From NCBI GenBank assembly GCA_051294905.1, contig CM119371.1:36768001-36832000 (forward strand): a stretch of 64,000 bases of DNA, written 5' to 3'. Of this stretch, positions 3,008 through 51,710 are shown piece after piece; the stretch's first letter is position 1; the number at the start of each line of letters is the position of its first letter. The notes under the pieces were generated by a model. It had not been told where the DNA came from. It made no database searches and was given only the letters and a program-made list of their open reading frames with translations. Source of the stretch: Botryllus schlosseri. Its lineage: Eukaryota. Both the position numbers and the translations under genes were made by a program.

Positions 3008-3015
3008 TATATAAA
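3008..3015 (+). promoter_or_regulatory. TATA box of Cys-rich peptide gene 1
   Basis: TATATAAA about 70 nt upstream of the ATG at 3079; the paralog has the same motif at similar spacing (49319). Confidence 0.6.
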
Positions 3016-3078
3016 TGGCGAAATGATAAGAACTCGTTATTAGTAAATCTACTGATTTATGATACCTACACTTAAAAC

Positions 3079-3133
3079 ATGACTTCCAAGATCTGCATTC
3101 TGCTACTGGTATTGTCTGTCGCTGTCTACCCAA
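3079..3133 (+). CDS. Cys-rich secreted peptide gene 1, exon 1 (signal peptide MTSKICILLLVLSVAVYP)
   Basis: aaacATG start, hydrophobic 18-codon stretch plus 1 nt, donor gtatga at 3134. Same length (55 nt) and phase as exon 1 of gene 2. Confidence 0.75.
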
Positions 3134-3207
3134 GTATGAATATTGATATTACAGAAATCGTGGTGCCCATATTGAGTTTATCTTCACCACGACTTTATCT
3201 TTTACAG

Positions 3208-3281
3208 TTTCACATTCGGCATGCTACTGCAAATTGAACACGTTGCCCTGTCTCACACATTGGGTCGGTGCTAACAATGCT
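3208..3281 (+). CDS. Cys-rich secreted peptide gene 1, exon 2 (ISHSACYCKLNTLPCLTHW[VGANNA])
   Basis: Acceptor ttatcttttacag after a 74-nt intron, in frame with exon 1. The donor is either gtcggt (3264) or gtgaga (3282), so the 3' boundary is uncertain. Confidence 0.65.
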
Positions 3282-4715
3282 GTGAGAAGTCAGTAAAAAC
3301 TTACCGTTGATGTGATTTGAAACAAAAGTAGGGTTATTTTAGAATAATTTGCTTTGACCAGAAGTGTCCAATACCGCAGTATTTCTACGTTTTTCAGAAT
3401 ACTCAAGTAGGTTTTGCCTATATTCACAATTTATACCAGCTATTATGTATTTTCGCTACTTCCACTTTTACGTCTAACAGTTGTTGCCGAAAATCACTAA
3501 CTCTTAACTCGTTATAACGCAGTGATGGGGTGAGTCAGAATCGTGTCACTTTTTTTGTATTACTTAACTTAACTCGAGTCACTTTGCAAAAATGACTTGA
3601 CTCGGCATTTCCAAAACATGGATTGACTCGTGACACGGACCAAAATTAACGAGTCAATTTCAAGTCATCAAGGAGCAGTGTCGATAAAACAGCTGATCTT
3701 GCATATATTCGAATTGTGCACGATGGGTTGGTGTGACTTGTGGGAGTGAGTGAGCAATCACTCAATGATTGTGCGTTTTACTGAGCCTCCAAACGAAGCA
3801 AACCGCAAACCGCAAACAAAGTGATCACAATTTACAGCTTACGTTGTAATAAACTAGTAGTAAGGTATTCTAATCATTCTAATGACCAATTGCCTATTTC
3901 CGTTCAATAGACTGCTTACTGTGGTCGTTACCCACCTTAACCGAACTTCTTGTACTATGTAAATCGAATCTAACTATAGTTTATAAGTTTATATTATTCG
4001 TCGACTATCGGAGTATGCATAAATTGTATCTCACGGATTTGTAGGTGGCTGGTGCATAGCATCATATCAATTCGTCTCGATTTTCTGAGGTTGCGTATTT
4101 TATTCTCTATTTTGATTGATAATTATGGACTGAGGCTATGTATACAGTTTTCTATAGGTATATAGTTTACAGTGGCGGCTCGTCCTATAGGGCAACTGGG
4201 GCATTGCCCCATCTAAAATTCTGTTCAATAACAATTCATTACCATTTATAGACGCACACCAATCTATATATACCGAAATCACAGCGAAAATCGTATTCTT
4301 CTTGTCCTTTCGCTTGTAAATGCCCATATATAGCGAAGTCTCTGCGAAAATCGAATTCTCTTCTGTGTTTTCGCTTTGCGAATGCCTAGCCGGGGCATGC
4401 CCCGGTAGCGCTCATAACAAGCTTTCACTGTCTATTCTCTCAAAGCCGCGCACAATAAAGAAACGGTGATTTACTCTCTCCTATTCATAAAATTACCGAG
4501 CAACCGGGGCACAATAGCTCTGTGCCCCTAAGGTGTGATGTAACAATCGTATCTATAGCTGAACTAGGTTACCGTCATATGCGTTTAGTCGATCTTTGCT
4601 GGTATCGGTCGATTTTGATGGTGTTTCACACCATGAAAACTCTTGAAACTTGGTATGTCATGTCGTGGTGGTGGTATTTAACACTGCCCAAAGTTTCAGG
4701 GTTTCTATTCAACGT

Positions 4716-5140
4716 TTAGGGTAGTAATTCCGTTTCCGAAGTTGAGTGTGTGCTGATCCGTCATGTATCGCAAACCGATTTTACTCAAATGCCGGTATTG
4801 GTATCCATTGATTTTGACGATGTTCAATACTGAGATCGGTTATGACATTTGGCACGGTAAGTCTTAATGTTAGTATCGAACGCTGTACCAAGTTTTAAGT
4901 TTGTCACTGAACTGTGTTAGTGGTAATTTCGTTTCCTAATTCGAGTGAGAGCTGACTCGTCATTTATCGCTAACAGATTATACGCAAAGCCGGTATTGGT
5001 CTCCATTGATTTTAACGATGCTCCTTACCTAGATCCGTCATAAGCTTTTGCACGGTATGTCTTGATTTTAGTATCGAACGCTGTGCCAAGTCTCAAGGTT
5101 GACACTCAATGATTAGGGCAGTAATTTCGATATCAAGGTC
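4716..5140. repeat. Diverged tandem repeat, unit about 199 bp, a little over 2 copies
   Basis: Motifs gccggtattggt.tccattgatttt and ttagtatcgaacgctgt.ccaagt recur about 199 bp apart; units begin near 4716, 4916 and 5114. Confidence 0.7.
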
Positions 5141-5899
5141 GAGTATGGTAGAAATGTGCTCCGATCTGACACTTTAGCCTACAACGCATTGCGGATTTCA
5201 CGCGTAACGTTAACTGAGATGATGATATCATTCTCAGTTTGCATTCAAATATTTACTTTGATATTATATTCTCCAATGTCAATTTCACCGTGAAATTGTG
5301 GCCTTCAAGCCATTTGCCTACAACCCCCCTGTCAAGCGCGATAGCTATTTCGCTTTCGATGGCGGCTAACAGCTGATCACTTGATCAGCCTATTCTTCAG
5401 TAAATTTTACGCAAAATTCGGTGTTGGTCTGTTCGCAATAATTTTGACAGTGTACCATACCGAAAGGGGCCATGAGGCCACTTCTCGATGATGTCATGTA
5501 ACAGTGTACTAAGGCTTTCATCCACGTATTTATTCGGTAATATATTTTCCCAAGGCGACTTCGCAGCAGACCTATAGACAGTAATAAAGCCGTATGTGTC
5601 GTGTTACAGTCTCCAGTTTCAAGGCCAAAATCTCCTATGCTGTACCGAGACCGAATTTCCGAGGCTGCTATTCTTAGTTCTTCAGAATGATGTTTTGGAT
5701 TCAATATGACAGGCCCAATATGAGATAACAATTGCGTATCTGTCCAAACTCGTTGACCTTTCCAATTAGGCTTGCGCTATCTCTCGAGTTATAGTCATTT
5801 CCATTTCTGCAGATAATTAGTCAGGTCTAGTGCGAACACGAACCGTGTTGAATCTTTGTTCGGTACGCCGTTTATGCAGTTACCACACTTCAAGTCACA

Positions 5900-49618: not shown

Positions 49619-49837
49619 GTGAGTTTATATTATTATAGTCTAATGCCCAGTATAGCTTTATAGTCGAGACGTATAGTCTATTCCAGAGGTCTCAAGCACG
49701 CGGCGCGCGGCCAGCTTTCTTCTACCTTTCAGTCTGAATACCAAAGCAACTGTGATGCATGTCGGCTGCCCTAGTTCTTCAGAAGACAAATTACGATACA
49801 TATCCGATCCAGATTTAGAAATCCCCGTCGTCGCTGG

Positions 49838-51086
49838 CAGAGGTGGTCAGTAACGAAGTACTTCTACTTTTTCTAAGTACTCAAGTAGTTTTCCTCTACT
49901 TCTGTTACTTACTCAAGTAGATCCGATTTTCGCTACTTCGACTTCTACTTCGTAAGATTTTGTGATCTACTTTGTGATCCTGATTGGAAGATAGCCTGAT
50001 AAATTTTGGGGCTGTTTTCATGGAATATCAACATTTAATTTTCACAAAAGTTGAGTAAAGCCAAGAATTTTCGTCGCGCTTCGCGCCGAGTGGTTACGGG
50101 GTCACCAGTATGATTTTATGAAAGTATCGGTGAATATAATTTAGGTCGCGGGTTGGCGTGGTTTAGTTTACACCACATTGTTGCCCTTCGCCCATATGAA
50201 ATAATTCATCACAGTAGATATGGCTCATCATAACGTTTGAAACTGATGTTTCGCAATCTAGCATTTACTTGTCATATCGTAATCTAGCATGTCCATGGCG
50301 TGTCCTAATCTGGAAACGTTGACTCTGACTTTTATTTTAGAGCTGTTTTAGCACACCACCTTTAAAACTTCCTGGACTAAAGGCATGAAATACAAGCTCC
50401 ACCTTTAGAAGTAGTAGGCCCTATTTATATTTCACTTTTAATTCCTAGTATCATATACTTTGAGTCAAAATTAATATATGTTCTTTTGTCTGGATAACAT
50501 ACATTGTTGAAGTATAAAAGCAAGTGTAGTAATGCCTTTAATATCCGGAAATAATGCCAAACGATATGGCATTTTTACGGTCCACCATATTTTTTATTAA
50601 CGTTTACTGATCGCAAAAAGTGTTTACACCGTATCCTATGCGACTTCTCCGTATTGCTCTTCGGCTAAACTACGGGCCTTACAATATGGGGGATGGCGTC
50701 GTACCATGGTATTTTCTAAAACATGCTATTCGAGAAAACAGAGGATTAGTATCGCATTTTCACAATACTATCATGATGTTGATGAATGCTTATTGCTTAT
50801 GCTATCGAAATTTGGATACCTGTTGGTATGCATCAATATGAATCGAGCTCGTCACCTTTCGCATAGCTCAATTTGCACCTTTTTACAATCCATGTGAACG
50901 AATTAGGATCGTTTTCTCAACTACTTACTTACTTGAGTACTTTTAAAGTCAGTCAATTATACTTCTACTTCAAGTAGTTTAAAGTTGCTTATGGAAGAAG
51001 GACTTCTACTCGTACTTGAGTAGATTTTTTCGTCGCTACTTCTACTTCTACTTGAGTAGCTTTCTTGACTACTTTGACCACCTCTG
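49838..51086. mobile_element. hAT-type MITE family A (TACTT-rich ends) in intron 2 of gene 2
   Basis: TIR cagaggtggtca/tgaccacctctg; perfect 8-bp TSD gtcgctgg. Confidence 0.93.
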
Positions 51087-51229
51087 GTCGCTGGATAATA
51101 GTCACTTCCAACCCGAACAAACGAAGGAAAGCGCGTACCGTTTCCCGTTCCCAATCGCCGGTTATTCAAATAGTGACCAGCACCGCATTGTACACGCGGC
51201 TCAATGAGTTTATTTTCCCTGTTTTCCAG

Positions 51230-51297
51230 GCCAAGAATGTCCACAACCGCTGCTGTGCTGCAGACATCTACCTACCATTGCCGAAGACGCAGAAAAG
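51230..51297 (+). CDS. Defensin-like gene 2, exon 3 (GQECPQPLLCCRHLPTIAEDAEK)
   Basis: Strong acceptor ttttccctgttttccag; the phase-1 join completes the six-Cys pattern; donor AAG|gtgcga. Confidence 0.82.
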
Positions 51298-51313
51298 GTG
51301 CGAGGTCCTAGCT

Positions 51314-51600
51314 CAGTGGTTCTCAAACTTTTTTGAACACACCCCCCGTATCGTCGTATCACAAAATGCTACGAGAACGCTGGCAGTCCCAACGGATAGT
51401 TTGATGGCATGGGTTATGACTGTTGATAAGAGTTCTTAAATATGAAATTCGGACTAAACACACAGTAATAACTATAAATTAGAGGGAAATCGCGCCGGGC
51501 ACGGAAACTTTTTCAGTAGATCGTAGCTTCGCCCCCCCCCCCCCCCTTCAGATGATTTCACGCCCCCAAGGGGGGGGCGCCCCCAGTTTGAGAAGCACTG
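51314..51600. mobile_element. Charlie-like hAT MITE, 287 bp
   Basis: TIR cagtggttctcaaact/agtttgagaagcactg; perfect TSD tcctagct. Confidence 0.92.
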
Positions 51601-51689
51601 TCCTAGCTTAATGTATCACATGTGACAAACCAATTTATAAAGATAGCGCTGCATGGTTGCCTATTGCTTATATACTTTGAATTTTGTAG

Positions 51690-51710
51690 TGGGGTGGTGC
51701 CGTATCGTAA
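51690..51710 (+). CDS. Defensin-like gene 2, candidate terminal exon (WGGAVS-stop)
   Basis: Plausible acceptor just downstream of the MITE (tttgaattttgtag), phase 0. The intron would be about 97 nt without the MITE. Alternative acceptors exist. Confidence 0.4.
   Translation, partial: WGGAVS

Follow-up and report, generated by a model that had tools for sequence, protein, structure and literature searches.

A stretch of 64,000 nucleotides (nt) from Botryllus schlosseri (contig CM119371.1, positions 36,768,001 to 36,832,000 of the forward strand; hereafter the window, in whose coordinates positions are given) contains members of a family of small multi-exon genes predicted to encode a signal peptide followed by a cysteine-rich peptide. 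Two plus-strand loci, designated locus 1 and locus 2, flank a tandem array whose units contain a further member, the array gene, on the minus strand. An earlier note on this DNA, made from the letters alone, had proposed that locus 1 and locus 2 represent a spliced, probably unannotated family bracketing the array. The existence of such a family is borne out, and the two loci do lie on either side of the array; however, the array units are not simply enclosed by the family but carry its main gene on the opposite strand. The family is real and expressed, and it is apparently both undescribed and unannotated.

Every family member has a 55-nt coding exon 1, and the intron phases are common to all. 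Two subfamilies differ in the spacing between Cys1 and Cys2, which is 1 residue in the CxC type and 7 in the Cx7C type, as had been recognised for locus 1 and locus 2, and differ also between Cys3 and Cys4, 15 residues versus 11. In the proposed organization each gene would be a compact, TATA-driven unit in which exon 1 (55 coding nt) would encode 18 residues of the signal peptide and end in phase 1, exon 2 would contribute Cys1 to Cys3 and again end in phase 1, exon 3 would supply the remaining cysteines, Cys4 and the paired Cys5-Cys6, ahead of an acidic tail that is conserved, and exon 4 would be untranslated or provide the stop codon only.

Array gene structure and expression

The window holds four units of the array (8.2–11.7 kb, packed with transposon fragments), and every unit contains one minus-strand, four-exon gene with a 68-codon frame and introns of 84, 679 and 161 nt. 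The 68-residue precursor consists of a signal peptide, the motif C-x7-C-x6-C-x11-C-x6-CC and an acidic tail, and a TATATAAG box is located 73 nt before the ATG of every copy (15277, 23470, 35163 and 44327). The copies are positioned as follows.

14010–15350, minus strand: array gene copy 1, with TATA box 15350–15343, capped 5' end at ~15320 and ATG at 15277
Exons of copy 1, minus strand: exon 1 to 15223; exon 2 15138–15049; exon 3 14369–14299, with the stop codon inside; exon 4, 3' untranslated region (UTR), 14137 to ~14010
22203–23543, minus strand: array gene copy 2, ATG at 23470, the copy 1 model shifted by +8193
33896–35236, minus strand: array gene copy 3, ATG at 35163, the copy 1 model shifted by +19886
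43060–44400, minus strand: array gene copy 4, ATG at 44327, exon 2 44188–44099, exon 3 from 43419, exon 4 from 43187

The four window copies show 1–4 mismatches per 1341 nt, and intact 68-codon frames are retained in all five array copies, the fifth being an array-type copy 17 kb upstream of the window. A single Cx7C gene has been multiplied to give this near-identical tandem set, with four copies inside the window and the fifth upstream. Among the few differences between the copies, two alter a residue: residue 3 is Y, C or R, whereas residue 45 is D or N. Codon 3, at 15269–15271, 23462–23464, 35155–35157 and 44319–44321, encodes C, R, C and Y, respectively, and C in the fifth copy, and has the look of a mutation hotspot, or else of a leader position under selection.

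Expression was assessed across window positions 1–20000, an interval that includes locus 1 and array copy 1, using the raw bulk RNA run X23 and the contigs of X2, X3 and X4 from three other studies. All three array introns are represented by spliced joints.

15138>15223, minus strand: intron 1, 84 nt; 86+88 reads in X23 with 101 start places, and contigs of X2, X3 and X4 (4 of 4 runs)
14368>15048, minus strand: intron 2, 679 nt; 79+109 reads in X23, and contigs of X3 and X4 (3 of 4 runs)
14137>14299, minus strand: intron 3, 161 nt; 71+83 reads in X23, and a contig of X4 (2 of 4 runs)

The three joints read CT..AC on the plus strand, corresponding to GT..AG on the minus strand. At 15320, 183 reads leave the genome and continue into non-genomic sequence, the reverse complement of which we take to be the SMART template-switching oligo. 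These reads mark a capped 5' end that lies 30 nt downstream of the TATA box, with the ATG another 43 nt on, and the leader between cap site and ATG contains no further ATG. Reads from the array gene number ~757 of 12.9 million, a rough value derived from bin depths and pooled over the near-identical copies. Transcription of the array gene is clear, its splicing agrees with the model and, as the amplified gene is the well-expressed member of the family, the array would therefore act as a dosage amplifier.

A backward joint of 10.7 kb, from 12681 to 2011, is present in the same RNA data in 23 reads with 13 start places, and the segment 2011–2137 is covered by high-depth contigs with ~5% mismatches. 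The probable source is a repeat, or a copy located elsewhere in a different arrangement.

Locus 2

When the window was compared with itself, the part of locus 2 that extends from the promoter through exon 2 aligned with all array units on their minus strand, at 72% identity over 291 nt, and the last exon aligned too. The predicted model has the four-exon build, exon lengths and phases of the array gene, an intact frame and all splice sites present, the intron 3 donor, GTGCGA, being somewhat weak.

49319–49326, plus strand: TATA box TATATAAA, 79 nt before the ATG at 49398
49398–49452, plus strand: coding exon 1, 55 nt, beginning MSSRI and matching the array gene at 14 of 18 residues
49453–49528, plus strand: intron 1, 76 nt, phase 1
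49529–49618, plus strand: exon 2, 90 nt, C-x7-C-x6-C followed by QGWLG; donor GTGAGT, phase 1
49838–51087, no strand assigned: hAT-like, non-autonomous transposon of 1250 bp in intron 2 (1611 nt), with 12-nt terminal inverted repeats read by eye
51230–51297, plus strand: exon 3, C-x5-CC and acidic tail, ending in phase 0
51767–51982, plus strand: exon 4, first codon the TGA stop and the remainder 3' UTR, 69% identical to array exon 4

The stop codon is thus located at 51767, beyond the end of the locus at 51710 given previously. The ratio of non-synonymous to synonymous substitution rates (dN/dS) between locus 2 and the array gene is 0.45 overall, with 0.16 in the signal part and 0.57 in the remainder, and the locus, a Cx7C paralog that is intact but diverged, probably functions as a gene. 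For positions 42900–52000, no RNA run was listed among the indexed runs as containing the interval, and 13 presumed-RNA runs matched small shares of 0.07–0.12, values that are uninformative on locus 2. Run X17, labelled as a different organism (organism B), shares 35% of the sampled words of the same interval; it may derive from a closely related organism or from a mixed sample, or may merely be labelled differently.

The transposon in intron 2 is flanked by an 8-bp target duplication (49830–49837 and 51088–51095), and related copies occur at 55.3–55.9 kb and 58.7–59.4 kb; its ends were not picked up by the automatic inverted-repeat scan. Intron 3 contains, at ~51310–51610, a palindromic element of ~300 bp whose ends are inverted and whose centre consists of a C tract and then a G tract; it is probably a miniature inverted-repeat transposable element.

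Locus 1

Exons 1 and 2 of a CxC gene are present at locus 1, with the TATA box, their reading frame and both intron 1 splice sites intact.

3008–3015, plus strand: TATA box TATATAAA, 71 nt before the ATG at 3079
3079–3133, plus strand: 55-nt coding exon 1 for the signal peptide (18 codons + 1 nt), beginning MTSKI
3134–3207, plus strand: intron 1, 74 nt, GT..AG, phase 1
3208–3288, plus strand: exon 2, C-x-C-x6-C followed by THWVG; donor A|GTCAGT at 3288/3289, phase 1

The similarities of the two loci described in the earlier note were all recovered here: the common box 70–80 nt before the ATG, the exon 1 of 18 codons + 1 nt with the start M[TS]S[KR]I, the phase-1 introns of 74 and 76 nt and the related exon 2 motifs. 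No in-phase exon with the C..CC pattern was found within 12 kb downstream, and no CxC-type sequence resembling exon 3 occurs elsewhere in the window; locus 1 therefore has three cysteines only, and reading through the exon 2 donor meets a stop two codons on, again with three cysteines in total. Locus 1 sits in a segmental duplicate of a region upstream of the window that contains a twin gene (blocks of 83–93% identity), and the stretch that carries exon 3 in the twin is replaced by other sequence at locus 1. An upstream ATG at 3059, missing from the twin, opens an upstream open reading frame (ORF) of 7 codons. Over 2669–3335, the two columns for X23 gave a mean RNA depth of 0 and 0.55, X2 gave 0.17, and X3 and X4 each gave 0; the proposed joint 3133>3208 was absent from the 15 of 39 joints listed for the four RNA runs.

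Locus 1 is quite probably a partial duplicate that lost exon 3, most likely a pseudogene. It is unlikely to be a working gene, encoding either a short three-cysteine peptide or six cysteines by way of a distant, unrecognised exon. The intact promoter, exons and splice sites would agree with such a gene, as would a dN/dS of 0.36 relative to the twin; the 12 kb without an exon 3, the acquired upstream ATG, the depth of 0 to 0.55 in four runs in which the array gene yields ~750 reads, and the odd cysteine number, which would be unusual, argue against it.

Two further sequences were noted at this locus. Positions 4709–5129, in the stretch replacing the exon 3 region, contain a tandem repeat of 198 nt (2.1 copies, 77% matches), and at ~3380–3470, after exon 2, there is a fragment with end sequence like that of the transposon in locus 2 intron 2.

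Genomic distribution and relationships of the family

Single exon peptides were searched against the 495.5-Mb assembly of the same genome, and 40 kb on either side of the window were examined with exon peptides. Further paralogs, anticipated by the earlier note, were detected: the Cx7C exon 2 matched at 7 places and the CxC exon 2 at 3 places, all on contig CM119371.1 (C1) between 36.733 and 36.850 Mb. The family is confined to this one cluster of ~120 kb, comprising about ten small genes.

A further Cx7C gene outside the window, on the minus strand at window-equivalent ~82.3–82.08 kb and ~68.1–67.0 kb, is interrupted within exon 2 by ~14 kb of inserted sequence with long inverted repeats at its boundaries. 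On one side of the insert are the signal exon and Cys1 to Cys3, and on the other are the remainder of exon 2 and exon 3. Two six-cysteine CxC genes, both C-x-C-x6-C-x15-C-x6-CC, lie upstream. One, referred to as the intact CxC gene, occupies the minus strand at a distance of 34.5 kb upstream from the window, with exon 3 located 439 nt after exon 2; the other, the twin of locus 1, occupies the plus strand at 34.7 kb upstream from that locus, with exon 3 located 4674 nt after exon 2. Exon 2 of the twin and of locus 1 are 85% identical in peptide and 88% in DNA. An extra CxC exon 3 on the minus strand, at window-equivalent -39661 to -39729, lies ~5 kb downstream of the intact CxC gene, mirroring the far exon 3 of the head-to-head twin; it either serves alternatively as the last coding exon or was left behind by an inverted duplication.

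Relationships were evaluated against shuffled sequences. In the direct comparison of locus 1 with locus 2 the likeness is weak: the signal exons failed to beat 1 of 2000 shuffles, and the mature parts failed to beat 63 of 5000, a marginal result. The intact CxC gene matches locus 1 with a z of 13.4 (0 of 5000 shuffles as high) and the array gene with a z of 6.9 in the mature part (0 of 5000 shuffles) and 6.0 in the signal part (0 shuffles). The kinship of locus 1 and locus 2 is firm because the intact CxC gene, as an intermediate, matches both locus 1 and the array gene.

Properties of the predicted peptides

In the spliced models the six cysteines are ordered C..C..C..C..CC within ~36–40 residues, the Cx7C type conforming to C-x7-C-x6-C-x11-C-x5/6-CC. 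The precursors are 68–73 residues long and free-standing, with neither a second repeat nor a peptidase part, and only 5–9 residues separate the signal exon from Cys1, with no hydrophobic globular N-terminal domain. Signal cleavage is predicted near residue 21, which would release a mature peptide of 47–52 residues with three putative disulfides. The cysteine domain is interrupted by a second phase-1 intron between Cys3 and Cys4, the read-confirmed intron of 679 nt in the array gene.

Both subfamilies keep the acidic tail that follows the CC pair. Two lysines precede this tail in several members, and the tail may therefore be a removable pro-piece. Computed isoelectric points (pI) range from 4.6 to 5.2 in the array and CxC types and reach 6.9 in locus 2 (4.6–6.9 over all); the peptides are therefore not cationic. 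Across comparisons, dN/dS is 0.49–0.57 in the mature part and 0.16–0.18 in the signal part.

Similarity searches

Protein and family searches used exon-sized queries only, which lowers their power. A word-indexed protein search with residues 8–47 of the array exon 2 read-through frame returned no candidate. A profile built from 7 exon 2 peptides gave 2 matches among 1.84 billion protein representatives, both repetitive junk translations, and 0 matches in the PDB at E up to 10. Pfam searches with 7 exon pieces detected no defensin family, the only matches being EGF-like and below threshold. The gene for rusticalin, an ascidian protein considered below, was sought in the same genome through the peptidase domains PF02557, PF13539 and PF08291, with no matches. 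In the open full-text literature no report of free-standing defensin-like peptide genes in tunicates was found, subscription journals lying outside the search.

Identity and function of the family

Combined, these results suggest, with a probability of roughly 0.8, a single-locus multigene family of small, secreted, disulfide-rich peptides in which the array gene is amplified, locus 2 is intact and locus 1 is truncated. This interpretation builds on the array gene models with their splicing and 5' end, on the relationships between the members and on their confinement to one cluster. The most likely role of the peptides, put forward tentatively, would be that of an extracellular host-defence or effector peptide, because the signal peptide is conserved, the mature part evolves faster, the gene is tandemly amplified and expression is high. 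Near-identical tandem arrays of toxin or defence genes are known, examples being the Nv1 neurotoxin of Nematostella and the copy-number-variable human defensins. The present cluster resembles these in having near-identical tandem copies of a secreted-peptide gene beside diverged paralogs, with amplification probably serving dosage, and differs from them in organism, in peptide family and in its units of 8.2–11.7 kb containing transposon fragments.

Several points weigh against this interpretation. Acidic-to-neutral peptides (pI 4.6–6.9) are unlike most membrane-active antimicrobial peptides, and no family, structure or homolog match offers a functional hint. Signal cleavage was judged by eye using the -3/-1 rule rather than by a predictor. 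With respect to the truncation of locus 1, a rare joint could hide among the joints not listed, as 15 of 39 were; the dN/dS of 0.36 between locus 1 and the twin derives from only 5 synonymous and 6 non-synonymous differences, and some constraint on locus 1 may have persisted after duplication.

It is quite possible, though not the reading we prefer, that the family is a lineage-specific orphan in which the cysteine order arose convergently and the role is non-immune, the peptide acting as a signalling ligand, a protease inhibitor, a tunic component or a reproductive peptide. Amplification combined with a fast mature part (0.49–0.57) and a conserved signal (0.16–0.18) is more typical of defence or toxin peptides, which argues against a non-immune role. 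In contrast, an orphan origin would agree with the lack of a homolog in the protein, profile and PDB searches and with the net negative charge of the peptides, and the C-terminal acidic tail kept in both subfamilies suggests a specific interaction or a processing signal. In addition, the tick carboxypeptidase inhibitor, which has a like cysteine array, is an enzyme inhibitor according to the part of PMC6339383 available.

Descent from true defensins of the trans-defensin type, the reading advanced in the earlier note, appears doubtful. What survives of that reading is the cysteine order C..C..C..C..CC within ~36–40 residues. As in beta-defensins and the C-domain of big defensins, the precursors are small and secreted, the six cysteines end in CC, the genes form an amplified and diversifying cluster, and a phase-1 intron, with a read-confirmed joint in the array gene, lies directly between leader and cysteine region. 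This intron is weak evidence, as phase-1 introns after signal exons are common. In the portion of PMC7203481 available, the position of a phase-1 intron is used as evidence tying big defensins to beta-defensins, and trans-defensins are described as three antiparallel beta-strands with three disulfides. The same portion places the whole cysteine module of big and beta-defensins on one 3' exon, unlike the present family, in which the second phase-1 intron splits the cysteine domain, and reports big defensins as absent from Urochordata. Further differences are the acidic-to-neutral charge of the peptides, the absence of the hydrophobic N-terminal domain of big defensins, and the lack of detectable sequence or profile similarity to beta- or big defensins with the exon-sized queries: no Pfam defensin match was obtained on the exon pieces, the best match being EGF-like at 17.1 bits against a cut-off of 24.3, and the PDB and the 1.84 billion representatives yielded 0 matches and only junk, respectively.

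Cysteine spacing gives a divided answer. The usual loop ranges of beta-defensins are x4–8, x3–5, x9–13 and x4–7; the Cx7C type fits these except for Cys2-Cys3, which is 6, and the CxC type falls outside at Cys1-Cys2 (1), Cys2-Cys3 (6) and Cys3-Cys4 (15). The C-x-C start of the CxC subfamily is shared with mammalian alpha-defensins, and also occurs in sea-anemone peptides of the beta-defensin fold. The later spacings differ, x6, x15 and x6 in the CxC subfamily versus x4, x9 and x9 in alpha-defensins, and any likeness to the latter would be convergent. The earlier note had used the length of the first loop to divide alpha-type from beta-type defensins; however, according to the available part of PMC7203481 it is disulfide pairing that separates them, 1-5, 2-4, 3-6 in the beta-defensins and the big-defensin C-domain and 1-6, 2-4, 3-5 in alpha-defensins, the latter being described there as known only from some mammals.

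The nearest described ascidian sequence type is rusticalin of Styela rustica, which in the part of PMC6339383 available is a protein of 212 residues with two N-terminal Cx6Cx6-7Cx8Cx7CC repeats and a peptidase domain of the MD clan. Its repeats, rated beta-defensin-like by the authors' HHpred search, have a spacing similar to that of the present peptides and lend some weight to a defensin ancestry (PMC6339383, same part). Compared by motif only, the likeness consists of the ascidian origin, the cysteine order and similar loop sizes, and the difference is that each gene of the present family encodes one free-standing module of 47–52 residues, versus two repeats fused to a peptidase. In the accessible part of a 2023 review, tunicate antimicrobial peptides are linear or unrelated only, with no defensin (PMC10608444). 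If defensin ancestry applied, which we regard as improbable, these would be the first free-standing trans-defensin genes of a tunicate, derived from the big-/beta-defensin lineage within the vertebrates' sister group, and the CxC subfamily would represent an independent, alpha-like loop shortening parallel to the mammalian beta-to-alpha transition; the leader and cysteine domain would then, with equally little likelihood, already have been joined as in beta-defensins.

Derivation from an EGF-repeat protein, exon 2 being the remnant of an EGF-like domain, is very improbable: although the C-x2-G-W-x-G of exon 2 resembles the end of an EGF domain and the Cx7C exon 2 gave weak Pfam matches (EGF_Teneurin, E 0.0058, 17.1 bits; DUF7949, 15.9 bits; JAG1-like_EGF2, 14.5 bits), all were under the curated cut-offs (24.3–27 bits), neither the CxC members nor exon 3 matched, a DUF7949 search of the same genome gave nothing above cut-off, and the terminal CC pair, together with the absence of C-x-C at cysteines 4-5, misfits such a domain.

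Of the readings considered, the secreted multigene family with a tentative defence or effector role is the one we prefer. With only linear or unrelated peptides listed for tunicates in PMC10608444 and big defensins reported absent from Urochordata in PMC7203481, a gap is left at the tunicates, between amphioxus with its big defensins and the vertebrates with their beta-defensins. The expressed, amplified family, with its defensin-like cysteine array, is a concrete candidate with which to address this gap; true defensin ancestry, if true, would be the interesting outcome. If the cysteine order is convergent, the genes would all the same constitute a new scaffold family of secreted peptides and a clean case in which a single 120-kb cluster combines dosage amplification with diversifying paralogs, altered loop lengths, loss of an exon and disruption by transposons. 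Short multi-exon peptide genes of this kind escape both annotation and protein databases.

Other features of the window and genome

No ORF of at least 150 codons occurs in the window except that at 57867–58358, which has no Pfam match. This ORF lies in one of two copies of a 2.1-kb repeat (56042–58108 and 60636–62749, 89% identity) that contain arrays of the hexamer CCGACT. Elsewhere in the genome, on contig C9 at 15.015–15.069 Mb, three tandem, intron-split GH6 (glycoside hydrolase family 6) genes score over the Pfam cut-off and mark the genome as probably that of a tunicate; to our knowledge, GH6 genes of this kind occur among animals only in tunicates, as part of cellulose synthase.

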